Below, piece after piece: positions 15,001 through 51,472 of a DNA stretch of 64,000 nucleotides. Each line of letters starts with the position of its first letter. Within the stretch, counting starts at the first letter, position 1. This stretch comes from a virus, in the IMG/VR virus record IMGVR_UViG_3300027749_000040, positions 32,001 through 96,000 of that record; one strand, given 5' to 3'. The position numbers and the translations under genes were made by a program. Under the pieces are notes generated by a model. That model had not been told where the DNA came from and made no database searches. It saw nothing but the letters and a program-made list of their open reading frames with translations.

Positions 15001-15593
15001 GTGCAACATCATTGAGTACAACTTGGTTAACACAATCGTTATCATATACCGATAGTACAATTTATGTTGAAGATGTGACAAAAATCACAACCAATGTAGT
15101 GCAAAATGAAACTGCACCGGCGGCAGTTGATGGAGTTTATATTATTGGATTGGATGTTGATAAAAGAATTATTAGTCAAGTTATTGTTGTAAATAATTCA
15201 ACATCTACCACATTACCTAGCTCTGCTTATAGTGTTCAGATAGTAGATATTGCGCCCGTACTTGAAATCACATCCGGCGTATCAGTGGGGCAAAGTTTGA
15301 CAATTACTATAATTTTAGGTAATCTAATTTATGTTGCAGGTGAGCAAATCAAGTTCACAACTGTAGATTTTGACACTAATACATTGACAGGATTACAACG
15401 TGGTACTAATGGTACGGGAGAAAGATACTATATTCCAGCATATGAAAAAGTATATGGAATACTATCTACTAATCAACTATCAGAAGTTGACTATAAGTTG
15501 ACATGGAATTCATATAATTATAATCCTATTATAGGTGATCCTCTACAGATTAGCGACACAGCGGCTGCAAATTTCTTAAATGCGGAGTTCTAA
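3..15593 (+). CDS. Giant virion structural protein (baseplate/tail-associated, >5,190 aa; 5' end lies upstream of the window)
   Basis: Frame is open from nt 3 with no stop before the listed TTG at 111. T/S/G/N/V-rich. Contains ~13-15 copies of a P-x-x-F-x-G-x-x-FGG-x6-YY(V/I) module, FG-GAP-like propeller repeats (FGSAV, LVVGAP, LLIGAP) and Asp-box-like repeats (AVGDNGTIVTSSDGVTW). Lies next to tail-fibre-type genes. Confidence 0.8.
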   Translation, partial: DITTANVGDIRGQYQSIFYNNPNTTGTVFGANNYRDLGNLVPWGNKIIQNSASLVLPGTFLRKPGVNLYDSLQYNSNQYISFKTLLIDTVNKTEYNVYQSSAVMLDDALDQITISKVDSAPFFWSDMLPSKSPYASNSYTFANSLDVSRYPLTRIYNFDTANYYGVLVYLTRTVQGYTSITQLVIGIDYTISATSPALTVETDLLPGDIITVNEYYQTYGSYVPNTPTKLGLYPSFIPEVILDENYTNPTYFIRGHDGSYTKLYGDYIDGHLVDFRDKVLLEFETRIYNNLKLSNIIPIRDYDVVPGFFRTTDYSYDEFLSIYSQFFLNWVGQNRVEYKQQIGYTPTNQFSYNYSQSGNKINNAQIQQGYWRGIYQYYYDTSQPDVAPWEMIGFTSQPAWWTTRYGPAPYTSDNLVLWGDLAAGLNWNNGDPVIVTQCIRPQLLQVLPVDSNGNLVSPFDAIVGNYDGRSFRNDWKVGDVASTEFSYRRSSSWPFDLMKILALTKPAEFYNLGVDVDNYKYNSEFNQFLVNDRSHLVIADVQIYGDGIAKTSYINWIVDYEKQVGIDSTQTTIDLLANLDVRLIYRVAGFTDKTLVNFYVEKGSPNSNNASLLIPSESLNVLLYDNIPFNKIIYSGVIIQNSGTGWKVYGNSQTKAYFTVSKPKINGNYNLVTVEGESVQVAKDYFENTEILIPYGTEFVSKQDLAQFIGSYSNYLTTQGVLFKEIESGIDVNWNQMIAEYLYWTQSGWGKGSLLNLNPAANLITIQKDSCVVQPLTLQRQNFILNQNLYPIQSVDLAVVRDDTLFTATPLNQGDTVAYGQFNISNFEHGVVFNNVTLFNDVIYNLITGLRQNRIITRGTKTADWNGTIDAQGFILNQDNIQEWNNITKYTKGVIVKYKNKYWVSLRVLEPSMTFDGRYWKETDYNEIQKGLLPNPSTRSYESVLYYNTNTPNLSKDADLLSWSLVGYRPRDYMALADLTDITQINVYKNLIKEKGTKIAAENFKGINLPQGGIDYDIYDNWAIKTGEFGGVLDNNFIDFKLNQNELTGNPSIVGLTTGTYTDGVQQEVPLYSVFNYGRPITNPNVLPTIPANTPNRLYPDAGYVNFNDITTYGYYYNDLNLAQTPLSKLYVGEYVWVADYNGTWQVYTPISNGNLIQVLNNLNGTVTLQFAEPHGLTKYQTIAIINFDDAVNGYRIVQAVVDNYRVTIALSLVSTIARLTNTNSIVMRFQSQRVSQPSDIVNLPLLNTEFVKNKVWVDTNTDGDWAVYRKSINYQLDLELLKTGSETFGSAVATTSDLGYLIGDADLGVAYRYTYNPVFERYDLAQTLTGSASFGSSIGYTGSTFAISQPTGTLLADRKIKIYTLISTLQVNELQFLQTIQAPTGITNWGTKTEFSGDGNWLFISAYEQNAFYVYRKSQVTGLYEYNTIITLGSLVTGDNFSYALATNYYGNTLVVGAPGVDTGVTNNTGTSYIFERVMQNFEVRFTSQPFVPQTFNLVAGPLTRTAIGSSINSSNAITLSSVAGLSDGVNGTPIVFTGNVFGGISLNQVYYVKLISGSTITLSLTRNGTTLVLANTPSGTMTMVAQTSPIYVSVNGTLIDDNNYAVIGSLLNVYQSLNAGDILTVSGSTFVLIQQFTATDTITIGEQYGYSADLDTYGNELLIGAPFQINSQNKEGTIYRYTDGGGSYGIITGTIDCQVTTPTTILLNGYAVAIPVGNASVVAAAIAGSNITNVTATSIDNKLVISLINIELATINDKLDIITLTGNAMYQLGISKYTFTQTITDPHTAGRTQFGTVIKFNDNGSFVASAPASARYEATTFDSTDDDNYNNDTLFDNNTTQFVDIARNAGAVYMFDYAENYNENLTNVGQFIYAQSVNALNIDYGAQPYYGTALDFNDNTVVVGTPGFRPGYNNGQVIIYTNSSGLADWSVYRQPEIAVDVNGIQNAQLYSASTNNTLINLDYFDPLQGKILGVVSENLDIISNADPASYNSPNTTISGSSVWGTKQLGKLWFNTSSTKFVNYHQYNDVVYNSKWWGRVFPGSQVTIYSWITSDVVPAEYTATGTPLNLTDYAIEYVLNSTGAITPVYFYWVRNTNIIFNQIGKTLSDTICEAYISAPQASGIAYFAPIQSNVMGLYNTSEYVNSTDTVMHIGFATGTNDDDSHSIYSLIRSNYVDDFLPGLPALTSLPPLSLYDRMLDSMSGVDESGAIVPDPYLPKPVQSGILVRPRQGFFYSRFGALKNYLTLANQELAQIPFTETQSSKFLYTVGPINPSTGLPFYETTDYWEYINWWQPGYNDNTKSAMLVESYFQLATINAQNGLIVTVNKNGAGFQETYRYDSTVSTWVRIGLQNGTIQFKSSLWDYETARLGFGDNFFDTTPFDTYPSQETRSITRFLNEELPSEIFAFRNQGLILLFNYIMSETIESQNYLPWLNKTSFIDVAHTIRELLPLEVFQSDNQDFLSGYINEIKPYHVVVKDFLFKYTGTNLWAGNITDFDLPAQYNTNLQKYITPELVYANPSGDSQYLPTDAIWQDPAYTNWFNNYGVSITGVNAYPITTLASYLTLNSNSMVVDNIYGFPINGTIKIYDPTDPETDLSKKTFEIIAYSSVDRAYSTLSGLTRGVNDTPVSNHLPGQQLYIDLPAILVLDGGRGYANPPKVTAYIDTSIYPAPRTEAILQPVMNLDQLLRIDVINPGDGYVVLPQIIIEPSSVITFASSEVDLLTNTIAIQNQLIQTGDLVRYYTGTDTTAIGGVKNDQYYYVNVLESVPAYVLALYTTYADALQDRDRVVFLSTGTGENNNLAVSARASCVTSSRPIRENIMTLRYDRTTYNSQVTEWTKNNFYGSFYAGSFKNTEQIASSALSLESSQPAIDTILASAQGAIFEIQNIRNDEVVKWSSRTRTVTNTTTSTNLITITPSIGGTPDEGFVGPTTGFYVGMPIKFAGAVFGGLADNTVYYIKEIVSLTQFSISTTVGGLVVPLSTAVTTAGLDAIIGEVTNTAVISIQYPGILTSTATSQTTNFVTIPLNPSGICGTTGFYTGIPIFFTGNVFGGVIENENYYVMTVIDDQTFTMSTTNNPTIVTVEATENAGDYVVLNEIGDLNINTPIIITGTTFGGIIAGQLYYIASIDYSTNKVTLSNTINGGTVALTSAIGTATLTSQANAVQLTTATGSMTCNIGLPISPGQITGQEFTFYNTSGEFTNGGSGYSGTNSNLITRSTVATVTGSNYMYLNLLGGGLTNMYVNMPFRLSTSVGGLSAATTYYVKSMGTVVVDVTSSNAGTEEYTCASTTGFYAGMPISFTGGVFGGVVELVTYYVRTVTGLTTFTISETPSGSTFNLTGDNGLMTLTADNPFITVSLTAGGTTISLTDNFSPASTLTQYPTSAPTFFVSYMLGGYSVVINTAGTGFAYNNNITLQGGQDDLPGVNGINDIVINVSGISATGAITSTIISGTPPGLTEQYYLKVISATELEVYANPLMTVPVNGDTLGLTYTGVTSTNVTAVTAANDRLTVTNSDDFELNDPVVFTGSVYSELTLGQTYYIKTKPSTTTVTISTTIGGGTFNFTGTIADLEFTMAKSGDYVYLPEPFYFTQSIVRYNNRLYQCIVSNNDADFILGKWELLDSGDRKLNELDRIVGYYNPTANMPGRDLTQLVTGITYPGSVYMDNAFPPAEEFLLDTELQDQPFYPATINNMSVVWDGIRYVTISTSPTYSALLTSTTGDNWALSKLSNNPVGLSDIYYDGNRYVITTTNSATPIYTSTDGLVYTTGQTLSVPSNTLNRVYNSNDVWIAVGENVIKSLDTISWVNSFALSSPGSFSDVTYTTAGYTGWLVIGNQTINGVDQTLIIRSTNDGTTWNIVNDGITTVITSAYVNAITSSNSLVVIVSDAGQIFTSTDGAQTNVEQTSGTSENLVDVTYGNGKFIAVGDNGTIVTSSDGVTWTIETSTTTNNLNSVAYNDTDSKFIIVGDNNTILTSSNGSTWTTSALFIQEEPVYTVQGDSFAEGYGPEELVPGVVTDNLTMITTTRPGTNWAVGEYGHTGFNVVSIEITPSYPQYEYSFLNVVQNPVFIVIYDINPVIGTSTRIYETYDYTVDWVLKTITLNTTLAPNHTLGIELCEVGNGDQLQRSNSQAVPFIDNPDTGFVEMPLNCNYSASKFNGNGVIRPGTEPVQVECTKTEALIDSITCSSVSNFALNQSVQFQGNVFGGIELDQTYYIKTISYITNKITVSLPPLVNGIAGPTYQLSNDTGSMQIISQPGTGLVWTDPLVVHNGTKLILGETSVVTQTKSSTNSIVVNTSLTVDINDPIVFSDYIFGGLAPHTTYYISSIVDLNEFTVSTSLGGSIVPLTDASGLASFVTNDFAISIASVGPTAKLVFANNYTNTEDFVTFAVFGETDPIQYSYSIPITQIYMSTGGETQLLLTNYIGGTNPENAVVEVNGLRLTNTSEYTIDLVTQTLYLTFSLIAGDILAVTTYNSTNRQYLHTTLGGTYSGSASITLNIGSTTHFPGYDGSPYGGGLQTAAGSFSIGQGYTITTINDGVGGPNTNFTSIGALNNNIGTFFIASGIGAGSGSALESTGEEFSPGPDYLTLSSGSTVGLELNTAIIFASPIGGIVAGTIYYIAEILTPGTTNFTVSLTPGGPSIPLITDTGSMLGFINPPRVSNITAINNNISAPLARTNVTQTTAPNTITASSTAGFVIGQPILFKGLTTTGFGGLSADGTVYWINYIDANGIDFKVSETQSGSAYIVTNASGSMYAYVGGNEAVTLTTGVAHNLVENDIVRIDGVVGSVQLNNNSYYAKIITDTQIALYLSPYQPQSYATNDPVTTVSSYVSGGYVWLDKQFTLIDTTATASSAIDNTITVNSVSQIVIDTPVYFSGTVFGGIVEGTKYYVKSIDVLNSKITLSSTYQGSEIAITAYAGTDTMGVTMWEQTNVDRIWVTVNGYRVPSSSLVINPNNNLGILTTIVPGDVVIITNMIPTSTPDELIYINNVNKYNIPTVYRATSLSTTWLTQSLSYTDSTIYVEDVTKITTNVVQNETAPAAVDGVYIIGLDVDKRIISQVIVVNNSTSTTLPSSAYSVQIVDIAPVLEITSGVSVGQSLTITIILGNLIYVAGEQIKFTTVDFDTNTLTGLQRGTNGTGERYYIPAYEKVYGILSTNQLSEVDYKLTWNSYNYNPIIGDPLQISDTAAANFLNAEF

Positions 15594-21788: not shown

Positions 21789-22450
21789 TGCAATTATATG
21801 ATCCATCTAAGAAAGGCACAATTGTAGTTGGACATATGCGTTCAGGTTCTCAATATTTATTGAGTCTAGTTAAAATAGAATTGCAAAAAAATAATGTTGA
21901 ATTTGATGACAACGGAGAATACTTTAAAGATATATTCAGTGCCATTAGATATACTGATAATAGTTACTCATTCTTAAATATTATTGACAAAATAAAAAAA
22001 CAGGACATTAGTACTAATTATAGTGTGGGTACAATCGTCTATCCTAATAGCTTAGATATGATTAGTCAGCATAAGTCAAATTATAATTATTTTTCTAATA
22101 ATTATCATCTTATTAAAATGATTAGAAAAGATGTTATGGCACAATTTATGTCATACATGGTATTTATTGAATCAAAGGCACTACATAGCGGTATAAAATC
22201 AATGGACGAAGTTAAAATAAATACTCCTTATACAGCAGGCAGACTTCATATAATACATTATCTAAATAAACTATTAGAATTAGAAAGATTTAAGGCTGAC
22301 ACAACTGTATACTATGAAGATTTACCGCACTTACCCATACCAGGTCTAACAAAAAATAATTATAATATGACCCCTAAAGAATTTTTTAAAAATTACGATG
22401 ATATTGTAAATCAAATTAACGAATTAAATATAACACATTATGAGCGGTGA
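21788..22450 (+). CDS. Sulfotransferase-like P-loop protein
   Basis: Probable start at ATG 21788 (TAATG overlap). GHMRSGSQYL resembles the 5'-PAPS-binding loop, IRKDVMAQFMS the 3'-phosphate-binding motif; VYYEDL downstream. Confidence 0.55.
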   Translation: MQLYDPSKKGTIVVGHMRSGSQYLLSLVKIELQKNNVEFDDNGEYFKDIFSAIRYTDNSYSFLNIIDKIKKQDISTNYSVGTIVYPNSLDMISQHKSNYNYFSNNYHLIKMIRKDVMAQFMSYMVFIESKALHSGIKSMDEVKINTPYTAGRLHIIHYLNKLLELERFKADTTVYYEDLPHLPIPGLTKNNYNMTPKEFFKNYDDIVNQINELNITHYER

Positions 22451-24005
22451 ATACGATCAATTCGCTAGAGATATGCGTGACCGCTTGAATGCGGTTAGTC
22501 CATCACTATGTTTGGCAAAGTGGCAACAAGTCTCTATTCACTTACCTAGTGGATTGACTCAAAGTTGCTATCATCCACCAACACATAAGATACCTCTAGA
22601 ATTACTCAAAGACAATCCTAGCGTATTACACAACACCCCAATCAAAATACATGAACGTAAGCAAATGCTTGAGGGCAAACGACCAGAAGGTTGTAGTTAT
22701 TGCTGGAAAGTAGAAGACGCTAAGAGCGAAGACCCTAAAGGTCATATGAGTGACAGACACTATCGCAGTAGCGAATGGTGGAACGCACCCACGTTTGAAG
22801 AAGTCACACAAAACAAGTTTGATTATGATGTTGTACCTCGGTATGTAGAAGTTAACTTTAATCAGGCATGTAACTTTAAATGTATGTATTGTAGTCCTCA
22901 TCTTTCTAGTAGTTGGGAAGAAGAAGTTAAAAAGCATGGTGGTTATCAATTAACCGGTATGATACATAATAACTTAAAAGCACTAGAACAAAAAGGAATG
23001 ATGCCACTCAAGGTTGCAAATAAAGACAACCCCTATGTTGAAGCATTCTGGCAATGGTTTCCTGAAATATATCGTAAACTACGTGTGTTTAGAATGACCG
23101 GTGGCGAGCCACTTATGGACAAGAACACATTCAAAGTGTTAGACTATGTAAACAAAAACCCACACGGTCAACTTGAATTATCTATCACAAGCAACATGTG
23201 CCCGCCCGATCAGAAATTATTTGACAAATTTGTTGAAAAAGTCAAAGCAATTGAGACACTACGCACATATGAAGACACAGAAAACTTCAATGTACATAGC
23301 GGTAACAACTGGTATGTAGACAAAGGATTCAAACACTTTTGGTTGTTTGTATCACTAGATGGTTTTGGTGAGCAAGCAGAATATATGAGAACTGGATTAG
23401 AGTTTGAACGCATGTTGAATAACGTAAGAACTTTTTTACGTGAAACAAAATATTCTACTGTGAGTTTTATAAACACATTCAATATCATGTCTATTCCAAG
23501 TTTACATAAGTTCTTAGAAATGGTATTAGAATTACGTGCTGAGTTTGGTGGAAGAAGTCAAGTTGAGTTTGAGATTAGTCCTGACCAAACTGAAACAGAA
23601 AAAGAAAATAACATTGTTCACAAGGTTTATACTCAAAAGAAATATCAACGTGTGTTCTTTGATATTCCAATATTACGTTACCCGCCGTGGTTTAATATTC
23701 AAAACAGCGGACAATATGGAATTGATGAAGTAGAACGTTGCTTGAAGTATATGGAAGACAATGTACAGGGTGATGACTATTTGGAAACATTTGAGGGATT
23801 TAAACCGTATGAGATATTGAAAATTAAGCGAGACCTTGCTATAATGAAAGAATCTCTACCCCCGGACCAACTTTTACTAAATAAAAAGAACTTCTACATG
23901 TTTATTACAGAATATGATAGACGCAGACAAACGAATTTTATGGAAACCTTTCCGGAACTAAAGAGCTACTGGAGAGAATGTATCAAAGCGCACACTAAAC
24001 ATTAA
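22440..24005 (+). CDS. Radical SAM protein with N-terminal Twitch-like domain (#1)
   Basis: CNFKCMYC and TGGEP. N-terminal CLAKW..SCYH..CSYC. Confidence 0.92.
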   Translation: MSGEYDQFARDMRDRLNAVSPSLCLAKWQQVSIHLPSGLTQSCYHPPTHKIPLELLKDNPSVLHNTPIKIHERKQMLEGKRPEGCSYCWKVEDAKSEDPKGHMSDRHYRSSEWWNAPTFEEVTQNKFDYDVVPRYVEVNFNQACNFKCMYCSPHLSSSWEEEVKKHGGYQLTGMIHNNLKALEQKGMMPLKVANKDNPYVEAFWQWFPEIYRKLRVFRMTGGEPLMDKNTFKVLDYVNKNPHGQLELSITSNMCPPDQKLFDKFVEKVKAIETLRTYEDTENFNVHSGNNWYVDKGFKHFWLFVSLDGFGEQAEYMRTGLEFERMLNNVRTFLRETKYSTVSFINTFNIMSIPSLHKFLEMVLELRAEFGGRSQVEFEISPDQTETEKENNIVHKVYTQKKYQRVFFDIPILRYPPWFNIQNSGQYGIDEVERCLKYMEDNVQGDDYLETFEGFKPYEILKIKRDLAIMKESLPPDQLLLNKKNFYMFITEYDRRRQTNFMETFPELKSYWRECIKAHTKH

Positions 24006-24013
24006 GGAATAAA

Positions 24014-25540
24014 ATGGCAGGCAAGAAACACGAAGAATCATTTGCACAATACAAATCACGACTTATCGACCCCATTAGCGATAGCTATTGTGCCGCTAAG
24101 TGGCTAAATGCTACTATCTGGTTAGGCAACGGACAAACAACCAGTTGTCACCACCCATTAGGTCATCAAATTGATGTCAATGAACTAGCCACAAATCCTT
24201 CAGCAATTCATAATACTCCGCACAAGAAACTAATGCGTAAAATGATGCAAGAAGGACAACGCCCGCAAGAGTGTGAATACTGCTGGAAGATTGAAGATAT
24301 TGGTCGTGATAACATGAGTGATCGTGTTTATAAAACTGCTGTGTTTGAAGAATCAGATATTCTTAAAACTGCCAAAGCAGATTGGCAAGAGAATACAATG
24401 TTGAAGACATTAGAAGTTTCTTTTGACCGTACATGTAATTTTGCTTGTAGTTATTGTAATCCAAGTTTCAGTACAACATGGGTTAAAGATATTCACAAGT
24501 TTGGTCCTTATCGTAACATTGACGGTGATGCACGTAGTCACTTTATCAATGAAGCTGACCATGCTAAACCACTAGCGGACGATATTAATCCATATTCACA
24601 GGCATTTTGGCGCTGGTGGGAAGAAGGACTTGCTGACAACTTAGAAGAAATTCGCATTACGGGTGGTGAACCATTAATGGCTCCGGGTGTATGGAAGTTG
24701 TTTGAATGGTTTCGTAATAATCAAGAACGTGCGACAAATCGTCCAGACGGTAAGGTATTGCGCTATGCTATCAACAGTAACTTAGTTCCCAAAGATGATA
24801 TCATGGACAAGTTAATTGAGTATAGCAAATTTGTTCCCTATATGGAAGTATATACAAGTTGTGAAGCTTTTGGTGCTCATGCTGAATATATCCGTGATGG
24901 TTTTGAATGGAACAAATGGATTCATAACCTAGGTAGATTGCACACTGAAGGCAATATCAAAAAGACACACATGATGATGACTATCAATAGTTTGTGTTTG
25001 GCTAGTATTGTTGAGTTCATGGATCAAATGATGGAATTCAAAAAGATTCACAACACGATGTATCCTACAATGAGTTTAAACATCTTGCGTTTCCCTAGCT
25101 TTCAAAGTTGTGCTATGTTGCCAACTGAGATTCGCCAAAAGTATAAAGACAAACTACAGGTATGGTTAGACAATCAGATTGCTATGGATTTCCGTACTAG
25201 TGAAGGTGCACCAATGTTGATGAGTATTGAGCGTGAACAAACACAACGATTGATTGATTACCTTGACGTTGTTAAAACACCACACAAGAATGTTAAAGAC
25301 ATTCCGCAGAATCATAGAGACTTTAAACAGTTCTATGCTCAATATGATGTCCGTCGTGGTAAGAGTTTCCGTAATACTTTTCCACCAGAGTTTGTTGCAT
25401 TCTATGATAGTATTCAAACAGAATTGCCAACAGCAGATGAAATTATTACACAAAATTACCGTCAAGGTGTTGATTTGATTCCGGAGCATCCACCTGAAGA
25501 TCCAAGCAAAGATGTATTTTTTAACCAAGATTTACAATGA
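24014..25540 (+). CDS. Radical SAM protein with N-terminal Twitch-like domain (#2)
   Basis: CNFACSYC and TGGEP. N-terminal CAAKW..SCHH..CEYC. Confidence 0.92.
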   Translation: MAGKKHEESFAQYKSRLIDPISDSYCAAKWLNATIWLGNGQTTSCHHPLGHQIDVNELATNPSAIHNTPHKKLMRKMMQEGQRPQECEYCWKIEDIGRDNMSDRVYKTAVFEESDILKTAKADWQENTMLKTLEVSFDRTCNFACSYCNPSFSTTWVKDIHKFGPYRNIDGDARSHFINEADHAKPLADDINPYSQAFWRWWEEGLADNLEEIRITGGEPLMAPGVWKLFEWFRNNQERATNRPDGKVLRYAINSNLVPKDDIMDKLIEYSKFVPYMEVYTSCEAFGAHAEYIRDGFEWNKWIHNLGRLHTEGNIKKTHMMMTINSLCLASIVEFMDQMMEFKKIHNTMYPTMSLNILRFPSFQSCAMLPTEIRQKYKDKLQVWLDNQIAMDFRTSEGAPMLMSIEREQTQRLIDYLDVVKTPHKNVKDIPQNHRDFKQFYAQYDVRRGKSFRNTFPPEFVAFYDSIQTELPTADEIITQNYRQGVDLIPEHPPEDPSKDVFFNQDLQ

Positions 25541-26934
25541 CGAATAAAATCATTCCATTATGGGAACACGCAAAGCCCCATAAAGATAGTAAGAACAAGG
25601 TGTTCTGTATGGCACCCTGGACTCACACTTATATCAGTCCGCAATCTGAAAGACGATTGTGCTGTGCCTCACGTGAAGAACATTCGTTCCAGAAACAATA
25701 CATTGATAGTAGTAATGATTCAAAGTACGGAACTGTAACTGAAAGTAAGACAGCATTAGATGACTATCAACCGGTAAGTTTGAAAGAACATTGGAATAGT
25801 GAATACATGAAAGACATTCGTGTGAAGCTAATGCGCGGTGAAGAAATTCCTCAATGTGATGTATGTAATAAGAACCTATTGATGGAGGGCTATTCATACC
25901 GTGGTTGGTTTACTGGATCATTGTTTAAAGATAAGATACAAGAAGCATTTGATAAGACAGATGATACCGGTCACACTACAATGGAACCAATAAGTTTTGA
26001 TTATCGTTTTAGTAATCTATGTAACTTTAAGTGCCGCATGTGCGGTGAGCAATTGTCTAGTTCATGGGAAACTGAAAAGAAAGTTCATAACTTGTGGAAC
26101 GAGAAGAATCAGCCATTCATGGTTCCTGAAATCAAGTCAGCTATGAAGACTTTTCAAGAAGAAGTTGTTGAAGTTGAATTTCGTGATGCAGTAAGTCGCG
26201 GTATTGTGGAAGAAATGTATTGGGTCGGTGGTGAGCCATTAATGTATGACGTTCACTGGTGGACGCTAGAAGAAATGTTAAAGAACGGTAGTAACAAGAA
26301 TTGCTATATGCGTTATAACAGCAACTTAAGTAGGGTACAGTTTGGTAAAAAGAACTTATATGACTATCTTCCATTGTACAAAGACTGGATGATGTGCGCT
26401 AGTATTGATGGTACTGGAGAGATTGTAGAATACATTCGCACAGGTATCAAGTGGGATGTGTGGCTTGAGAACTTTAAGAAAGGTCTTGAGTTACCTAATG
26501 GTAAAGACAAGATGATTCTTGATCTAACATTAACTGCACCGGGCATGTTTAGTTTGAAAGAACTATTTGACTTGAGTATTGAATTAGATGTTAAGATTGA
26601 AACTAAAACAACGTTTGGCTTTCATGCTGACATTATGTGGACACCATTAAGTTGGCCACGTGAGGTACTAGATGAAATGATTGATGACATACTTGCTTAT
26701 ATTCAACCACGTGCTACTTGGAAGCAAGCAACGTTGATTGGTAATTTAGAAGCATTGAAGAATACACGGAAGACTCATGCAGAAGAATGGCCCGATACTT
26801 ATAAGCAAGCCGCATTGAATGGTAAAAATTGGGTTAAAAGATTAGAAAATATTCGTGAAGACACTGCCGTTACCATGCGTAGCATTTATAGTCGAAATCC
26901 TAAACTACTAGAATGGTGGGATAACATAGGATGA
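25537..26934 (+). CDS. Radical SAM protein with N-terminal Twitch-like domain (#3)
   Basis: CNFKCRMC and VGGEP. N-terminal CMAPW..LCC..CDVC. Confidence 0.92.
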   Translation: MTNKIIPLWEHAKPHKDSKNKVFCMAPWTHTYISPQSERRLCCASREEHSFQKQYIDSSNDSKYGTVTESKTALDDYQPVSLKEHWNSEYMKDIRVKLMRGEEIPQCDVCNKNLLMEGYSYRGWFTGSLFKDKIQEAFDKTDDTGHTTMEPISFDYRFSNLCNFKCRMCGEQLSSSWETEKKVHNLWNEKNQPFMVPEIKSAMKTFQEEVVEVEFRDAVSRGIVEEMYWVGGEPLMYDVHWWTLEEMLKNGSNKNCYMRYNSNLSRVQFGKKNLYDYLPLYKDWMMCASIDGTGEIVEYIRTGIKWDVWLENFKKGLELPNGKDKMILDLTLTAPGMFSLKELFDLSIELDVKIETKTTFGFHADIMWTPLSWPREVLDEMIDDILAYIQPRATWKQATLIGNLEALKNTRKTHAEEWPDTYKQAALNGKNWVKRLENIREDTAVTMRSIYSRNPKLLEWWDNIG

Positions 26935-44462: not shown

Positions 44463-47400
44463 ATGCTAAGAGATGTATTTTATTTCGGAGAAAAACCCAA
44501 TGTTCACCCTAGAGAAAAGTTTGCAACAGATTTAGTTGACGCTAAACGACAGTGTACAACCGAACACTTTTGGATAATAAACGAACATTGTAATTATAAA
44601 GATTTTGATTGGGACTGGGAGTTTGACTTCCTGCCTGACGAAGATGTATGGGCTGAAGAACACAATAATGTATGGCCAAGTCCCTATCAGAAAGATAGTG
44701 GCACTTGTCTGTGTTCAACTAATTTAGATGCAGTAACAATATATCGTGCTGATGTTGATCCTATACCATTAAAAGATGAAATAACAAACAACTGGAAGAT
44801 TATTGAGTACATTGATGAATCTAAATTTGATTTTAAATGGCACCCAGACCCAAACGATCCGCCGTACATTTATGTATGGGGTAATAAATGGTATCCCGGT
44901 ACAATCATGCCAACAGTTGAGTATCATGTACCTGGGGCAACAGATAGAAAATATATATTAGACAATTTAGCACCATTATTGCCTATGCCAATGTTGTTTA
45001 ATATTATATATGAGCCTGCTGACTTTGATTATAGTTGGAGACCAGACCCAACTGCACCACCATACATATATGTGTTTGGTAATAATCAACATCCAGCAAG
45101 CGTGATGCCAACAGTTGAGTTTCATGTAGAGGGGGCGACTGAGCGCAAATTCATTGAGAATATTATACCCAAGTTAGCCGCAAGACCCGCTGACTTTGAA
45201 ACACTAGAAAATATTGATCCAACAACATTTGACATGACATGGGTTCCTGACCCGACGGCACCTCCTTACATTTATGCTTGGGGTAATCAATGGAATAAAC
45301 CTGAAGATAAGATTAGTGTTATACGTAGAGTAGAAGGTGCAACTGAATACAAATACATGGAAGCACGTGTAAAACGTAATCCATGTATGGATAACTGGAA
45401 TATACCTAATAACATGTTTCAAAATAAGTTTGACTTTAGCTGGGAACCCAATCCACATGATCCACCATTTATATATCAGTTTGGTACGCAATGGCAAAAG
45501 ACAGGCGGTCCCAAATATGTCGTAGAAGGTGCAACGGAGATAAAATATATAGATGTATTAAAAGCAGAAGTAGTTTGCACACAGTTTGAAAATTGGCAAG
45601 TGCCAAGAAATATAGACCAAACTAAGTTTGATTTTAGCTGGCATCCAGACGATACTGAAGAACCCTTCATTTATCAGTTTCCCGATCAATGGACCCGTAC
45701 AGGTGGTCCTAGATATGTAGTACCAAGCGCAACTGAAATAAAATACATAGATGTACAAATAGCAATTGCTAAACAAGATAAAACACATTGGTCAATACCT
45801 GAAAATATTGATACAACTGACTTTGACTTCAGTTGGCATCCCGACATTGACCATGCACCATTGATATATCAATTCGGTACGCAATGGCAACGAACGGGCG
45901 GTCCTAAATTCTACGCAGTAGGTTGTACTGAAGATAGCGACATACAATATGTGGATACTCTTAAAGCTAAAGCAATAGTTGACATGAGTAACTGGTGTGT
46001 TCCTAACAACTTAGATATAGATACGTTTGATTTTAGCTGGCACCCAGACGCTACAGAAGATCCGTTCATCTATCAGTTTGGAACTGAATACTCTAAAGTA
46101 GGTGGACCTAAGTATACTGTCAACGGAGCAACTGATATCAAATACGTTGCAGATATCATTGCTAAATTGCAACAGAATTATGACAACTGGATTATACCTG
46201 ACTACATTGATAAAGGCTCATTTGATTTTAGTTGGGTACCCGATGTTGAAGACAAGCCTTATATCTATCAGTTCGGTACACAGTGGCAAAAGACAGGTGG
46301 ACCAAAGTATGTAGTAGAGGGTGCATCTGAGATTAAGTATGTTAATGTAATTAAAGCAAAGAAATTGCAACATGAAAATACTGCATGGAAAACATTAATC
46401 AATATAAGTGATTTTGATTTCAGTTGGCATCCCGATGATTCAGATGAACCCTACATATATGTGTTCGGCAATCAATGGAATGATGCTACATTAGAATCTA
46501 CTGTAGAATATCATGTTGAAGGTGCAACACAAAGAAAATATGTTACTGACTTAATTGCTCAGGCAGCACCGTACAAAGAAGATTGGGTCAACGTAGAAGA
46601 TGTAGAAAGTTTTGACTATAGCTGGAGACCTAATCCAACCGACCCTGCATACATATATGTGTTCGGTAATACGCAGTATCCAAACACAATCATGCCAACT
46701 GTCAAGTTAGTAAAACGTGGTGCAACACAAGAAAAGTTTATAGATGATATGGTAGCCACATTGGCACAAAAGCCTGAGTTGTTTATTAACACAAAATTAA
46801 TTAAAGACTTTGATTATTCATGGAGACCTAATCCTAAGGATCCCCCATATGTGTATCAGTTTGGTACACAGTGGGCTAAGACACATGGGCCTCAATTTAC
46901 AGTAGAGGGTGCTACTGAAAGCAAGTTTGTCAACGAACCAGTATCAACTATCTTACCTGATATGACATATTGGGAAATACCAGAGAACGTTGACGTAACT
47001 AAGTTTGACTTTAGCTGGCATCCTGATGCAACTAGCCCTCCGTACATCTATCAGTTTGGTACAATACTAGATGAGAAAGATGGTCCTAGATATATTGTTC
47101 CTGGCAACACTGGTGTTGTTGTTAATATAGAACGTACAGAGATTGTACTAGAAGAATTAGAATTCCCTAAGTATACAATTAAGACTACACTAGAAGATTT
47201 GATTGAAGACCATACCGGTGAAATCTTCTGGGCATTAAACCCTGATTTAGATTATAGTGAGTTTGACTTCAAGTGGGTACCTGATAAACAAAACGTTTAT
47301 CATGTTAACGCATTCGGTAGTAAAGATAACATGAACTCACAAACTTACTTTGTTAACGGTAAGATGTGGCAAAAGGGTTATAGAGATATAAATTATATTG

Positions 47401-49160
47401 AAGATAAAGTAGTTGAAGTTCGTACTAAGATTGACATGTTCTTCATTGACAAGGGCAATAGTGAGTCGCTAGCTAGATTCCAACAACTACGTGAAAGATT
47501 CCCCAACATAACTAAGACAAGATATCTAAACAGTTGGGTAGAAACAATTAATCGTTGTATAACTAAGTCTGAAACAAATTTATGCTGGATATTGAATAGC
47601 GAACTAGATTATACTGACTTTGAATTTGATTACTATCCTAGCCCGTGGCAGATGCGTATGGTACATGTGTTTGGAACTCAATGGAGTCACTGGGGCACAA
47701 CATTCATGGTCAATAAGACTACGTTCCCTGAAGATACAAAGTATGTCAAAATTATTGAGCACTTATCCACATTAAACTTTGTTAAACGTAAGACAGCAAA
47801 AGCAACCAATTGCTTATATGATATTGTAATGATTGACCATGGCAATAAAGAAACACAATATATTCGCAAAATTGTCAAAGACAGAACTGGTAGAGATTCT
47901 GAAATTGTTAAGTACAATAGAAGCTATTTACAAACATTTAAGTCAATGTTGAAAGACATTCAACCTAAGAAAGAACACTATCTTTGGGTATGTTCTAGTA
48001 TCTGTGACTATGAAAACTTTGACTTTAGTTATATATGTGATCCATATGCTAAAGATCAACTGCATGTTTTCCCTAGTGACAAACAAAAGTTTGGAGATAC
48101 ATTCTTAATCGATGTAAGCAAGTTCAAGTTATTAATTGATGATATGATTATGATAGAAGACTATGAGAAGGTTAATTATAATCAACATCAAAGAGTAAAG
48201 CGTTTACCAGCACCCGTTATTATTACAAAAGAAGATACACATGTCACTAATATTCATACTGATTTTGATTGGCCTTACGCTACGTTTGTCACGCAAGACA
48301 ACAAAGAATTAAATGTACATGATAATGAACCTATAAGCTTATGGACACTTGACACCAAGAACATACTGATTACTAGTACAGGTGGAACACGAATTATTGT
48401 CCCTAAAGAAGCAAAAGATTATGTAGAGAATGAACTGTATGATTACCCATACATCAGTCGTAGCAAATCTCTAGCGCAATCCCAGCCATTGGATATAGTC
48501 TTCCTAAGCAACGGAGAAACTGGAGCTGACGAGAACTACGAACACTTACTGAAAGTGACTAAGGGATTACGTAATAGAGTTGTTCGTGTTGATGGCGTGA
48601 ATGGTCGTGTAGCGGCATATCACGCAGCCGCACTAGCAAGCAACACACCTTGGATGTTTACTGTGTTTGCTAAATTAAAAGTCAATAATAAATTTGATTG
48701 GAGTTGGCAACCTGACAGATTGCAAGTTCCTAAGCATTATATCTTTACTGCATCTAACCCAGTAAACAAACTAGAGTATGGTCACCAAGCTATGATTGCC
48801 TACAACAAGCGTATCACACTTGCTAACAATGGTACTGGTCTTGACTTTACGCTTGACAATGAACATGAAGTTATTGAAGTGAATAGCGGTGTTGCTGTGT
48901 ATAATACAGATGCATGGAGTACATGGCGTACTGCATTTAGAGAAGCAATCAAATTAGTTGCCGCAACTGATGATATGTCTAAACAAAGACTTGATGCATG
49001 GTTAAATATTGGTGAAGGAGACTTTGCTCAATATAGTTGCAATGGTGCAAAAGATGCAGTAGAATACTACAATCAAGTCAATGGCGACTTAGACAAATTG
49101 CGTTTAAGTTATGATTGGTTATGGCTAAAAGAATATTATAATAAAAAATACAAATTATGA
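44463..49160 (+). CDS. 1,565-aa repeat protein with C-terminal glycosyltransferase-like domain(s)
   Basis: 12 tandem ~65-aa repeats, then degenerate GT-like modules and a terminal domain (LSNGE..AYHAAA..WRTAFREAIKL) homologous to 20835..21788. Confidence 0.75.
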   Translation: MLRDVFYFGEKPNVHPREKFATDLVDAKRQCTTEHFWIINEHCNYKDFDWDWEFDFLPDEDVWAEEHNNVWPSPYQKDSGTCLCSTNLDAVTIYRADVDPIPLKDEITNNWKIIEYIDESKFDFKWHPDPNDPPYIYVWGNKWYPGTIMPTVEYHVPGATDRKYILDNLAPLLPMPMLFNIIYEPADFDYSWRPDPTAPPYIYVFGNNQHPASVMPTVEFHVEGATERKFIENIIPKLAARPADFETLENIDPTTFDMTWVPDPTAPPYIYAWGNQWNKPEDKISVIRRVEGATEYKYMEARVKRNPCMDNWNIPNNMFQNKFDFSWEPNPHDPPFIYQFGTQWQKTGGPKYVVEGATEIKYIDVLKAEVVCTQFENWQVPRNIDQTKFDFSWHPDDTEEPFIYQFPDQWTRTGGPRYVVPSATEIKYIDVQIAIAKQDKTHWSIPENIDTTDFDFSWHPDIDHAPLIYQFGTQWQRTGGPKFYAVGCTEDSDIQYVDTLKAKAIVDMSNWCVPNNLDIDTFDFSWHPDATEDPFIYQFGTEYSKVGGPKYTVNGATDIKYVADIIAKLQQNYDNWIIPDYIDKGSFDFSWVPDVEDKPYIYQFGTQWQKTGGPKYVVEGASEIKYVNVIKAKKLQHENTAWKTLINISDFDFSWHPDDSDEPYIYVFGNQWNDATLESTVEYHVEGATQRKYVTDLIAQAAPYKEDWVNVEDVESFDYSWRPNPTDPAYIYVFGNTQYPNTIMPTVKLVKRGATQEKFIDDMVATLAQKPELFINTKLIKDFDYSWRPNPKDPPYVYQFGTQWAKTHGPQFTVEGATESKFVNEPVSTILPDMTYWEIPENVDVTKFDFSWHPDATSPPYIYQFGTILDEKDGPRYIVPGNTGVVVNIERTEIVLEELEFPKYTIKTTLEDLIEDHTGEIFWALNPDLDYSEFDFKWVPDKQNVYHVNAFGSKDNMNSQTYFVNGKMWQKGYRDINYIEDKVVEVRTKIDMFFIDKGNSESLARFQQLRERFPNITKTRYLNSWVETINRCITKSETNLCWILNSELDYTDFEFDYYPSPWQMRMVHVFGTQWSHWGTTFMVNKTTFPEDTKYVKIIEHLSTLNFVKRKTAKATNCLYDIVMIDHGNKETQYIRKIVKDRTGRDSEIVKYNRSYLQTFKSMLKDIQPKKEHYLWVCSSICDYENFDFSYICDPYAKDQLHVFPSDKQKFGDTFLIDVSKFKLLIDDMIMIEDYEKVNYNQHQRVKRLPAPVIITKEDTHVTNIHTDFDWPYATFVTQDNKELNVHDNEPISLWTLDTKNILITSTGGTRIIVPKEAKDYVENELYDYPYISRSKSLAQSQPLDIVFLSNGETGADENYEHLLKVTKGLRNRVVRVDGVNGRVAAYHAAALASNTPWMFTVFAKLKVNNKFDWSWQPDRLQVPKHYIFTASNPVNKLEYGHQAMIAYNKRITLANNGTGLDFTLDNEHEVIEVNSGVAVYNTDAWSTWRTAFREAIKLVAATDDMSKQRLDAWLNIGEGDFAQYSCNGAKDAVEYYNQVNGDLDKLRLSYDWLWLKEYYNKKYKL
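44793..47111 (+). repeat. Intragenic tandem repeat: 12 units of ~63-68 aa
   Basis: Consensus W-x-I-P-x-N-I-D-x3-FDFSWHPD-x4-PYIYQFGTQW-x2-TGGPKY-x-VEGATE-x-KY, counted by eye. Confidence 0.9.
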
Positions 49161-50140
49161 AATATCTAATCGTAGAGATGTATATTTCCAAACATTTTGA
49201 AATGTGTGATGAGTTTATACATAAATTAAAAACAGAAGAATATGATGTTTGTATTTTTTATGCACCATCTGAATGGGAATATTGGTTTGTTCATGATTTT
49301 AAAAACTTATGGAATACCATGACAGAAATAATCTATAGTAGAAACAAAAAAATAGAAGTAATTACTGGGGCGGCCAGAGTATTATACGGGGAACCTAAAC
49401 TAGATTATGTCACGGTTCATCCATGGGATACTTATTGGATAACATTAACACATCATAGCCTACAAAATTATGTAAGAGAAACAAAGCTATACACTTACAA
49501 ATACATTTATATGAATAACAATGACCATGCATGGCGTTGTAAACTTATAGATTTGGTAGCTAAGAATAATTTGATTAAGCATGGTGCAGTCTCATGGCAT
49601 AAATTGCGTTATAATTATCCATGGAAATATTTTAAACCTGAAATATTAAAATTAACGGATTCGTTCTCCGGAGATTTTTTTGATATTTTTACACTCCCTG
49701 AAGAATATGATAATTCTTTTATGCAATTGATTAGTGAAACTACTGTCAATGCTCTTTTTATTACGGAAAAAACAGCTATACCACTACTAACATCTAAACC
49801 ATTTTTAGTAGCATCTGTTACTGGTTATCATGCACATTTAAAAAAATTAGGATTTGAGTTATATACTGAAATTTTTGATTATTCATTTGATGATGAAATT
49901 GACGAAGATATAAGATATCAAAAATTACTTAGTAATTTAATTAAAATATGTAATTATTCAAAAGATCAACTAACATCAGCTCACCATCTGATTAAAGAAA
50001 AACTGTTGTTTAATCAAAACAGAGCAATAGAAATTGCAACCAAAAATATTAATAAACCTAGTATTTTAAATAATTTTCCCGAAAAGTTTTGGCATTCCGA
50101 TTCAATGATATATAATAAATATATGTTTATGACTGTATGA
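49157..50140 (+). CDS. Putative glycosyltransferase-like protein (GT-B-like C-terminal half)
   Basis: LISET..FITEKT..KPF..LKKLGF..FDYSFD string resembles the nucleotide-sugar-binding motif of GT10-like enzymes. Confidence 0.45.
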   Translation: MKYLIVEMYISKHFEMCDEFIHKLKTEEYDVCIFYAPSEWEYWFVHDFKNLWNTMTEIIYSRNKKIEVITGAARVLYGEPKLDYVTVHPWDTYWITLTHHSLQNYVRETKLYTYKYIYMNNNDHAWRCKLIDLVAKNNLIKHGAVSWHKLRYNYPWKYFKPEILKLTDSFSGDFFDIFTLPEEYDNSFMQLISETTVNALFITEKTAIPLLTSKPFLVASVTGYHAHLKKLGFELYTEIFDYSFDDEIDEDIRYQKLLSNLIKICNYSKDQLTSAHHLIKEKLLFNQNRAIEIATKNINKPSILNNFPEKFWHSDSMIYNKYMFMTV

Positions 50141-50713
50141 AGTAGACAGAAAAGGATTCAAGACGCGGGGGCAGTGCCCGCCAGGTCCACCATAAGGAAG
50201 TTTAATGAAGATAAGTGAGTTAACATCAGGATACTTGGGACAGATTGCTAAGTTAAATTGGCAACCGGTCAACAAGAGTGTATGGAATTCTATTCAAGAT
50301 GAAGGTCTTGACGAAGAACAAGACACACCCAATCCTGCCGACTGGCTCATGGCGTCATTAAATATTACACCAGATGATGCTCAAGCATTGATGGCATATG
50401 AAGATGATGCAATTGAAGAATTTAATCGTTTTGATATTGCATTGAAGCAACGCTATCCTGGCATGGTAGATTTAATTGATTACGACAACGGTACTGTTAC
50501 TATTGTCAAAGTCAAGTAAGTTTTCTTATGATGGGCCTGACACAGGATCGATTGGGTCACAAGTATTGAAATGGACAGTCCGGCAATGTAGAAGCCGTTA
50601 GGATTGGGGTCTCCCGGTCGCAGACACAAAAAACGTAAATGCAAACGACGAACTTTTTGCCTTAGCGGCCTAAACACCGCTTAGGGGAACTATCCCTCGT
50701 AACAGAAAATAGT
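50131..50713 (+). ncRNA. ssrA: Circularly permuted (two-piece) tmRNA gene, alphaproteobacterial-type; acceptor piece ~50131-50192, coding piece 50533-~50713
   Basis: T-arm GCGGG-GGCAGTG-CCCGC (50165-50181) and CAGGTCC-ACCA (50182-50192) lie upstream of the 5' acceptor strand GGGCCTG (50533-50539), giving 7 bp with G3-U70. Tag frame GCA AAC GAC GAA CTT TTT GCC TTA GCG GCC TAA = ANDELFALAA (50641-50673). Terminal pseudoknot with AACAGAA loop (50701-50707). Inter-piece pairing gactgt/acagtc and gattcaa/ttgggtc. Confidence 0.93.
50205..50519 (+). CDS. 104-aa acidic protein encoded inside the tmRNA intervening segment
   Basis: SD AAGGA (50194-50198) lies just after the tmRNA CCA. The ORF spans the loop of the intervening stem. 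Confidence 0.75.
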   Translation: MKISELTSGYLGQIAKLNWQPVNKSVWNSIQDEGLDEEQDTPNPADWLMASLNITPDDAQALMAYEDDAIEEFNRFDIALKQRYPGMVDLIDYDNGTVTIVKVK

Positions 50714-50738
50714 AATAGGCTCCTAGGAGCCTATTTTT
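50714..50738. terminator. Intrinsic terminator after the tmRNA, between convergent units
   Basis: Perfect palindrome AATAGGCTCCTAGGAGCCTATT followed by a T run. Confidence 0.8.
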
Positions 50739-51162
50739 ATGGTGTACATGGACCTGTAACAAATCCACCAGCATCTGGTCTACAAGTTGTAGGCAACGGT
50801 GTGCAAGGGCCAACAATAAACCCGTCCCTACAGTAGTTGATTACAGGTTGTGTTATAACGCTGGGTCCAATTACTACGGGGGGAGTCACAATGACTGTTG
50901 GGCCTACTACTGGTCCTGTTACAAATGTCACAGTGGGTGGTGTAGGCCCAACAACTACTGGGCTGGGAACAGTGCCACTGGGTCCAACTACAAACTGCGG
51001 GGCAGTGGGTGCTGGGCCAGGGCCAACCACAAACGGTGGAGGGATGTCAGCAAGTGACTGTGCTGATAATTTTACTATTTGTGGTTGTGGTGTATCTGTT
51101 GCAGTGCCTACACCGCAGGCAGTTAATGCTGTTACTAATAACAGTGATGCAATTTTTCTCAT
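50737..51162 (-). CDS. Pro/Gly/Val/Thr-rich lipoprotein with 8 xVxGP-type repeats (141 aa)
   Basis: Probable start MRKIASLLLVTALTAC (lipobox LTAC) with SD AAGGAA. Four C-terminal Cys. Only clear minus-strand gene. TAAATA on the minus strand at 51260-51265. Confidence 0.75.
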   Translation of the reverse strand: MRKIASLLLVTALTACGVGTATDTPQPQIVKLSAQSLADIPPPFVVGPGPAPTAPQFVVGPSGTVPSPVVVGPTPPTVTFVTGPVVGPTVIVTPPVVIGPSVITQPVINYCRDGFIVGPCTPLPTTCRPDAGGFVTGPCTP

Positions 51163-51472
51163 GGTAATTTCCTTGGTTAGGAAACTTCTTAAGAAAAAGC
51201 TCTCTAAGCACAACTTAGAATTTGGGAACTCTGTCCTAATATTTTTTAAGTCTCAGGGATATTTATCGTTTATATTTTTGATATTAATTTAATTTTAATT
51301 AATTACCAATAGAAATAACCGCACTTTAAAGAATTTTTTACCTTATACACTTACTTATTGCGTAACTAGTGTGTATACTTTACAGCATGAACTATTTTAT
51401 TTAAACAGTATTTTGTTTACTAAATATAAGTCTAGCCTGATGAGTCAGGCTTATTTTTTAAAAGGAAATTAA

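Follow-up and report, generated by a model that had tools for sequence, protein, structure and literature searches.

The window analyzed here comprises 64,000 nt of viral DNA (positions 32,001 to 96,000 of the IMG/VR virus record IMGVR_UViG_3300027749_000040) and carries, on its forward strand, a two-piece transfer-messenger RNA (tmRNA) gene in which the acceptor half precedes the coding half, the two being separated by a 340-nt intervening segment (the spacer) that contains a complete 104-a.a open reading frame (ORF), hereafter ORF104. Loci were assigned to the permuted tmRNAs on a covariance-model score over the curated threshold together with an acceptor piece located 5′ of the coding piece. 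In the intact window, the Rfam tmRNA_permuted model (RF04321) gave 99.8 bits at 50131-50673 on the forward strand (gathering score of 47) and the alpha_tmRNA model (RF01849) gave 55 bits at 50085-50716 (cut-off of 50); the permuted gene of the original prediction, which was made from the sequence alone, was thereby recovered with all of its elements in place. Both alignments place ~320 inserted nt after the CCA end and ahead of the 5′ acceptor strand, and no further Rfam model reached its gathering score in the window. ARAGORN called no gene in the intact window, and called a Permuted tmRNA with the same tag after deletion of 50205-50519 or of most of the spacer.

The acceptor piece (50131-50192; Rfam and ARAGORN) comprises the 3′ strands of helix P2, the T-arm (50165-50181; GCGGG-GGCAGTG-CCCGC, with a 7-nt loop), the 3′ acceptor strand CAGGTCC (50182-50188), the discriminator A (50189), and an encoded CCA (50190-50192), the strand, discriminator, and CCA being read from the sequence and from Rfam alike. 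The upstream ORF (49157-50140) extends 10 nt into this piece. The coding piece (50533-50713, the 3′ end being approximate) opens with the 5′ acceptor strand GGGCCTG (50533-50539), which pairs with CAGGTCC at 50182-50188, and continues with the 5′ strands of P2, a hairpin (50579-50596), and the tag reading frame (50641-50673), which Rfam and ARAGORN both read from a GCA resume codon to a TAA stop (50671-50673) as ANDELFALAA. This tag combines an alanine resume codon, a hydrophobic ..ALAA end, and a stop codon, as is required of a tmRNA tag. The acceptor end is tRNA-Ala-like, with a 7-bp stem that includes a G3:U70 pair (G50535 opposite U50186), the discriminator A, the CCA, and the T-arm; the G3:U70 pair is the mark of alanine acceptors. 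Helix P2 links the two pieces, with 13 of its 15 modelled pairs being standard in the Rfam alignment.

The spacer (50193-50532), which forms the insertion in both Rfam alignments and is predicted to be removed from the mature tmRNA, holds ORF104 (50205-50519 in the ORF list, with an ATG start and a TAA stop at 50517-50519). The frame has its own Shine-Dalgarno (SD) sequence, AAGGAAG (50194-50200), located 1 nt past the CCA and 4 nt ahead of the ATG, so that frame and SD both stand as originally read, and its stop sits 13 nt ahead of the predicted RNase P site. When the spacer interior was shuffled, the frame stayed open to the spacer end in a fraction of only 0.0015. A search of 5.8 billion proteins returned 37 homologues, ranging from 100% down to 48% identity and nearly all 102-107 a.a long, and an alignment of 21 of these has 31 invariant columns, with motifs that include IQDEGLDEE, FNRFDIA, and IDYD. 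Among the spacer-borne copies, dN/dS is 0.07-0.16 (dS up to 0.5, saturating in the most distant pairs); purifying selection on the encoded protein had been named as a test of the proposal. The product is an acidic alpha/beta protein (19 Asp/Glu against 8 Lys/Arg, counted from the sequence), for which AlphaFold2, supplied with the homologue alignment, modelled a compact fold with a mean pLDDT of 92.7. ORF104 is a real protein gene under selection. At 340 nt and with such a gene inside, the spacer is neither short nor non-coding, and we have filed the locus as a variant of the permuted tmRNAs because a short non-coding spacer is customary among the known members but is not something that their function demands.

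ORF104 matched no Pfam family (only HTH_micro appeared, below threshold at E = 0.1) and no entry in PHROGs. A PADLOC reading of the protein as Avs2 (E = 0.012) is a weak match that we treated as noise. The sequence-profile search of the PDB returned at best bL19 (E = 0.11), Foldseek found no fold relative of the model in the PDB (best E-value of 0.25), the wide structure search with VIA reached at best a Z-score of 4.9 (an R3H domain), under the meaningful level, and the ESM Atlas gave unnamed clusters only, none above 0.80. The sole good structural match is to an uncharacterised protein of an uncultured myovirus (TM-score of 0.88, rmsd of 1.5 Å). Searches of Pfam, PHROGs, and solved structures revealed no homing endonuclease signature (HNH, GIY-YIG, or LAGLIDADG), a result with which a novel nuclease is still compatible.

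The two ends of the spacer are complementary, with 12 consecutive pairs, three of them G-U, joining 50193-50204 (the strand that contains the SD) to 50517-50528 (the strand that includes the ORF104 stop). This 3′ strand runs into the RNase P leader (together 50517-50532), the last 5 nt of which are ATGAT with a conserved TGA at 50529-50531, a GTTTCTTTATGAT-type end that is conserved across the different spacer contents, or cargos, described below. Unconstrained folding of 50125-50745 yielded the T-arm and a ~16-bp helix made up of the acceptor stem and this closing helix, with the ORF in the loop; the minimum free energy is -185 kcal/mol (z = -3.1 versus shuffles), and the minimum free energy and centroid structures both join the closing helix to the acceptor stem. 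Given that the ends pair, the ribosome-binding site and the final ORF codons are enclosed by the same sequence that presents the RNase P site.

Relatives of ORF104 and the variable spacer

ORF104 (76-100% identity) also lies between permuted tmRNA halves in a set of related loci (L005, L006/L007, L024, L025, L026, and L028; L027 is truncated by its contig end), which score 89-131 bits in Rfam and represent five different tmRNA backbones. Across the five, the acceptor stems are CAGGTCC/GGGCCTG or CTGGTCC/GGGCCAG, the T stems are GCGGG/CCCGC, CCGGG/CCCGG, or AGGGG/CCCCT, the T-loops are of the reduced alpha type or of the GGTTCGACTCC type, and the tags are ANDELFALAA, ANDSVYALAA, ANDEVFALAA, ANDAYFGEDRLAA, or a 34-residue tag (L025). 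As the acceptor and T stems change on both sides together, a working RNA is to be expected here and not a relic. The comparison of homologous loci put forward with the original prediction thus gave covarying stems around an ORF that is conserved in five backbones and swapped for other content elsewhere, and the arrangement itself is real and conserved.

The junctions of these loci are near-constant, reading CCA-TAAGGAAGTTT-start on the 5′ side and GTTTCTTTATGAT-GGGCC on the 3′ side, with the CCA-TAAGGAAGTTT junction present in all ORF104 loci and also with several unrelated cargo types. L025 and L026 carry almost identical ORFs (dS of 0.047), yet their T-arms, coding pieces, and tags differ. 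In L024, the ORF is identical to that of the window, and only 50106-50648 is common to the two (97.6% identity), with homology beginning near 50106-50131 and both flanks, including the tag, being different. By these alignments, cargo and tmRNA backbone are uncoupled.

More distant homologues of ORF104 (≤70% identity) are in no case found inside tmRNA genes. In these other settings, the domain occurs internally in 500-990-a.a proteins, at the N-terminus of 238-500-a.a proteins, and as free-standing genes. Two of the latter (L035 1812-2075 and L037 633-896) share an ATGA overlap with the start of the next gene, the translation of which is, by eye, putatively IscA/ErpA-like (..FVQGGGCSGMQYGF..). 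In the related phage G001 (335 kb, 95% complete), the permuted tmRNA (111.5 bits) is compact, its spacer being a hairpin of 72 nt, and the ORF104 domain lies 138 kb from the tmRNA, inside an 839-a.a protein that also has a GNAT domain. We noted that in this protein (L032:526-3042, equivalent to ~204 kb in G001) the ORF104 domain, the GNAT acetyltransferase domain, and DUF5872 are joined by QGVAEG linker repeats. In a tree of the ORF104 domain, six spacer-borne copies form one clade (98/98 support), a seventh takes no resolved position, and every other architecture groups in a separate cluster, which is consistent with ORF104 having been captured into a spacer once or twice and then having spread among backbones.

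At least 119 IMG/VR contigs share the exact 31-nt acceptor end of the window; we refer to these as the first backbone. The exact acceptor piece had zero matches in species-representative bacterial and archaeal genomes (185,579 species), and the CCA-SD junction had 37 matches in the same genomes, none with a T-arm upstream, where ~70 matches to this 17-mer would be expected by chance. The census figures that follow, for loci and for spacer types, are among the matches listed. Both halves of the first backbone were located in 114 loci with 64 different spacers, so the acceptor piece of the window occurs with 63 others; these spacers measure 27-382 nt, plus one of 2080 nt. We classed a spacer as ORF-type when a start codon with a purine-rich SD lay ≤16 nt from the CCA and the frame was open to the spacer end. 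Below 1 kb, 26 of 63 first-backbone spacer types (42 of 113 loci, 37%) are ORF-type, and 20 of the 26 use as their stop a TGA that ends 1 nt ahead of G1 in the coding piece. Shuffled interiors kept the frame open in fewer than 1 of 100 trials for the longer spacers (a frequency of ≤0.0065 for a 168-nt spacer and for spacers ≥208 nt).

A second backbone, with the GGTTCGACTCC T-arm, repeats the pattern: its acceptor piece is found in at least 119 viral contigs, and 110 loci hold 99 spacer types, of which 38 (36% of loci) are ORF-type and 24 of those end at the conserved TGA. Taken over both backbones, this TGA is the stop in 44 of 64 ORF-type spacers, and in about a third of the ~220 related phage tmRNA loci examined the spacer holds other small genes. 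The cargo ORFs encode 20-123 a.a and are mutually unrelated, many being hydrophobic peptides of 20-40 a.a; recognizable families are thioredoxin (PF00085, 4.1e-21), DUF2061 (3.5e-20), and DUF6356 (7.3e-10). Unrelated cargos end in ..VSL or ..VFL because the conserved 3′ border encodes those residues. The spacers without an ORF are non-coding hairpins with paired ends of the TAAAACATA...TATGTTTTATAAT type. Pairing of spacer ends over 14 positions was compared in 63 unique spacers (first-backbone spacers ≥45 nt among the matches listed, plus that of the window) and averaged 11.9 for cognate ends, 9.5 for non-cognate ends, and 8.0 for shuffled ends. While the original prediction had treated the locus as a single oddity, the window is instead, by this census, one case of a pattern widespread in two backbones, in which the spacer is evidently an exchangeable slot for small genes.

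Individual spacers show further variety. An 84-a.a thioredoxin fills a 268-nt spacer (L280:213-464, reverse strand) and ends ..VKVSL at the conserved TGA. The 2080-nt spacer (L123 7460-9545, reverse strand) contains ~5 same-strand genes (60, 227, 45, 229, and ~54 a.a) between intact halves. Six loci (L060, L212, L226, L231, L235, and L317) have a 101-nt spacer with an SD-led, four-cysteine frame (MKYTALCPSCF...) that has no stop in the spacer and extends 27-90 nt into the mature coding piece. Some non-coding spacers (L062, L064, L096, and L261) include T-arm-like GGTTCGAATCC or GGTTCGATTCC motifs, with tRNA-like shapes in L062 and L096 called only at a relaxed ARAGORN threshold. Prophage integration was considered as the origin of the split and rejected, given spacers of 27-382 nt, the location on phage-genome contigs, and the fact that no bacterial copy was found.

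Transcription, processing, and competing explanations

The final stretch of the upstream gene contains a promoter-like sequence, TTGGCA-16-TATAAT (50089-50116, forward strand, 11 of 12 consensus positions), which stops 14 nt short of the tmRNA start. At 50714-50743 there is an intrinsic-terminator-like hairpin with a 9-bp stem and a 4-nt loop, and a T-run comes after it. Promoter calls in this work are consensus matches only and hence predictions. Among the matches listed, 55 of 118 related loci have such a site (≥9 of 12 consensus positions) directly ahead of the tmRNA, most being near-consensus TTGACA-17-TATAAT or TATACT that ends ~9 nt before the tmRNA start; in other loci, the tmRNA follows tRNA genes or coding sequence. 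Terminator-like sites number 9 in the region against 1.2 expected from shuffles, and promoter-like sites show no excess (10 versus 11.7 in shuffles). With a promoter and a terminator bracketing it, the locus looks like one transcription unit, as we infer from these signals.

The RNA material available to us consisted of assembled contigs of four RNA libraries, from which transcript ends, strand, and levels are not readable. Among these contigs, near-identical tmRNA halves are joined by other spacers of 45 and 137 letters, and a 330-nt contig from a 94%-identical relative covers 50221-50546, reaching 14 nt into the coding piece. No contig in the four libraries spans 50532/50533 by 31 letters on each side. 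Contigs ending at 50192 were considered as evidence of processing and set aside, as branching of the assembly at the variable spacer accounts for them just as easily.

We favor the reading, at a probability of about 65%, that this is a working phage-borne two-piece tmRNA gene in which the spacer serves as a cargo slot and ORF104 is translated mainly from the precursor. In the mechanism we propose, transcription from the promoter at 50089-50116 to the terminator at 50714-50743 would give a single precursor with its halves paired across 340 nt; an RNase P cut at 50532/50533 and 3′-end maturation at the CCA (50192) would release the acceptor and coding pieces. Translation of ORF104 would take place mainly on a precursor that is nascent or still unprocessed, while the SD is not yet paired with the 3′ end of the spacer; we favor this timing because only 1 nt separates the SD from the CCA, and transcription of the far spacer end brings the SD into the helix. 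Processing would then terminate the life of the precursor as a messenger. At the conserved stop, a terminating ribosome would occupy the 5′ acceptor strand, and translation and maturation of one molecule are therefore probably not simultaneous. Cargo genes in general would be expressed from the tmRNA promoter, and the conserved tmRNA halves would act as homology arms through which co-infecting phages exchange what lies between; the spacer could collect and exchange small genes because it is unconstrained except at its ends and is flanked by sequences common to many co-infecting phages.

A more far-reaching version of this reading is tentative, and we would sooner doubt it than adopt it: the spacer may be a dedicated slot for small accessory genes, with processing and translation coupled, the transcript acting first as messenger and then as precursor, and the cargo proteins, among them ORF104, a thioredoxin, and membrane peptides, may be early host-takeover factors made in step with the tmRNA. 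The argument for coupling is that the helix at the RNase P site encloses the SD and that the conserved stop places terminating ribosomes on the cleavage site.

Several observations weigh against the reading we favor. The T-loop GGCAGTG is of the reduced alpha type, two P2 pairs are non-canonical, and a helix enclosing both the CCA and the leader could slow RNase P. The GenBank phage collection contains no DNA match to the locus and no protein match to ORF104, so that there is no cultured relative among its phages, and a SmpB gene was not found in the 174-kb record (about half of the genome), in which case the tmRNA would depend on the SmpB of the host. Carry-over of DNA may account for the RNA-library contigs in which the halves and a relative of the ORF appear. 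Finally, a promoter-like TTGTCA-18-TATGAT at 50503-50532 leaves room for separate transcription of the coding piece.

From this last site follows the proposal that the halves derive from separate transcripts, with the coding-piece promoter inside the 3′ end of the ORF and ORF104 an ordinary gene between two RNA genes. The site matches 10 of 12 consensus positions, and a TATGAT/TATAAT motif before G1 is widely conserved; however, a start 5-9 nt past the -10 element would fall inside the 5′ acceptor strand and lose G1-G3 and with them the G3:U70 pair, the motif is equally well read as the leader strand of the closing helix, and promoter-like sites are no commoner in the region than in shuffles, all of which makes this proposal highly improbable. 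Somewhat less improbable, though still very unlikely, is that ORF104 is a selfish or neutral insertion that disabled the tmRNA and left the halves as relics. The failure of ARAGORN on the intact gene would fit such a history, but the five ORF-bearing backbones keep their acceptor and T stems through compensatory changes and retain plausible tags, their Rfam scores are 89-131 bits, ORF104 has no nuclease signature in the Pfam, PHROGs, and structure searches, and a long spacer need not impair a tmRNA from which it is removed in any case. That ORF104 is untranslated and its conservation one of RNA structure is scarcely credible, considering the low dN/dS at dS values that reach 0.5 and saturate, the confidently predicted protein fold, and the presence of the same domain in 500-990-a.a proteins and in free-standing genes away from any tmRNA.

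The strongest competitor concerns the messenger itself. The original prediction had one transcript yielding both tmRNA pieces and an excised mRNA; the single unit agrees with the promoter and terminator signals, whereas for the excised messenger we consider translation from the precursor at least as likely. Were the excised 340-nt spacer RNA the ORF104 messenger, protein output would follow tmRNA maturation. The ORF does fit the spacer tightly, from an SD 1 nt after the CCA to a stop 13 nt before the RNase P site, most other cargos stop at the TGA that ends 1 nt ahead of that site, and the layout resembles the tRNA-punctuated messengers of mitochondria. Set against this, end pairing would persist in the excised RNA and leave the SD within a helix. 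In bacteria with an encoded CCA, moreover, 3′ maturation begins by an endonuclease cut a few nt downstream of the CCA, and such a cut would land in or beside the SD and could sever it from the ORF. An excised messenger is thus unlikely in our view, and translation on the precursor remains the reading we prefer.

Genomic setting, known systems, and significance

The window derives from an IMG/VR virus record of 174 kb, with an estimated completeness of about one half. We identify the source as a large, uncultured freshwater (lake) phage: a large phage because genes of the window match phage families (virion structural protein, thymidylate synthase, HNH nuclease, and ATPase), and a freshwater one because the DNA runs that contain the window stretch are mostly labelled as freshwater metagenomes. 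Elsewhere in the window, one frame is open for >5190 codons (3-15593) and continues beyond the 5′ end, and ~16 consecutive same-strand ORFs of 243-521 a.a (22440-44452) may be a tandem array of radical-SAM paralogues, given that the two that were tested (22440-24002 and 25537-26931) both match phage radical-SAM families. A 1565-a.a protein (44463-49160) consists of ~15 copies of an FDFSWHPD...PYIYxFG(T)QW-like motif. Past the tmRNA terminator, 50737-51454 has higher G+C and ORFs overlapping on both strands, including a reverse-strand, lipoprotein-like frame of 158 a.a rich in Pro, Gly, and Val; we regard this segment as an indel because L006/L007 pass directly from 50708 to 51455.

The 2025 tmRNA database holds 97,179 sequences, 11,946 of them permuted and 79 from phages, and in describing permuted spacers it reports one tRNA-Ala gene (called unique) and, for the longest spacer, a repeat element, with no mention of an ORF (PMC11915505). 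Our full-text literature searches likewise found no published coding spacer in a permuted tmRNA, in line with the suspicion that the arrangement had not been described. The window gene shares with the permuted tmRNAs of Alphaproteobacteria (e.g., Caulobacter), some Betaproteobacteria, and cyanobacteria (RF01849, RF01850, RF01851, and RF04321) the leading acceptor piece, halves joined by the acceptor stem and P2, an encoded CCA, an ANDE..ALAA-type tag, and, presumably, removal of the spacer by tRNA-processing enzymes (PMC11915505); it departs from these cellular genes in a 340-nt spacer that encodes a protein under selection. The two-piece tmRNA of the OM43 phage Melnitz has a glutamine riboswitch in its 3′ domain and a downstream co-activator gene, with no gene in the spacer (PMC9004378). 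Like this tmRNA and those of pelagimyophages (PMC9004378), the window has a two-piece ssrA in a large aquatic phage, beside an early promoter, and presumably uses host SmpB, while unlike them it carries a gene within the spacer; no sequence match to the locus was found in the GenBank phage collection.

A protein gene that lies inside a tmRNA gene and is gone from the mature RNA is also known where group I introns, some of them carrying homing endonuclease genes, interrupt tmRNA genes, but those introns self-splice in the T-loop with ligation of the exons (PMC11915505), whereas the insert in the window follows the CCA and needs no ligation. No Rfam intron model matched in the window, the insert is not in the T-loop, and the cargo, unlike that of homing-endonuclease introns, is not a recognised nuclease. 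Messenger and tRNAs share one transcript in the tRNA-punctuated transcripts of mitochondria and in the thrU-tyrU-glyT-thrT-tufB operon of E. coli. The precursor proposed here would similarly bring a messenger together with tRNA-like RNAs and be split by RNase P and 3′-end nucleases; the difference is that the tRNA-like elements on either side belong, as two halves, to one RNA and pair around the messenger. In logic only, the slot recalls integron cassettes, with a fixed site, conserved borders, alternative small promoter-less genes, and an outside promoter; unlike in integrons, no integrase or recombination site is evident, and homologous recombination through the tmRNA halves would be simpler.

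The spacers of permuted tmRNAs are usually treated as disposable linkers, and annotation tools either miss genes with long spacers, as ARAGORN did here, or ignore what the spacers contain. If small genes are routinely housed in them, tmRNA would be under-called in viral metagenomes and a class of small phage genes would have been overlooked. The acidic 104-a.a protein, the thioredoxin, the DUF2061 and DUF6356 proteins, and the hydrophobic peptides of 20-40 a.a would then be candidates for early host-takeover factors. One transcript would be both a messenger and the precursor of a stable RNA, offering a natural system for the competition among translation, folding, and RNase P, and the tmRNA halves would be portable homology arms, providing a simple route for gene trading among unrelated phages. 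In these phages, a presumed throw-away piece of a stable RNA seems to act as a messenger as well.

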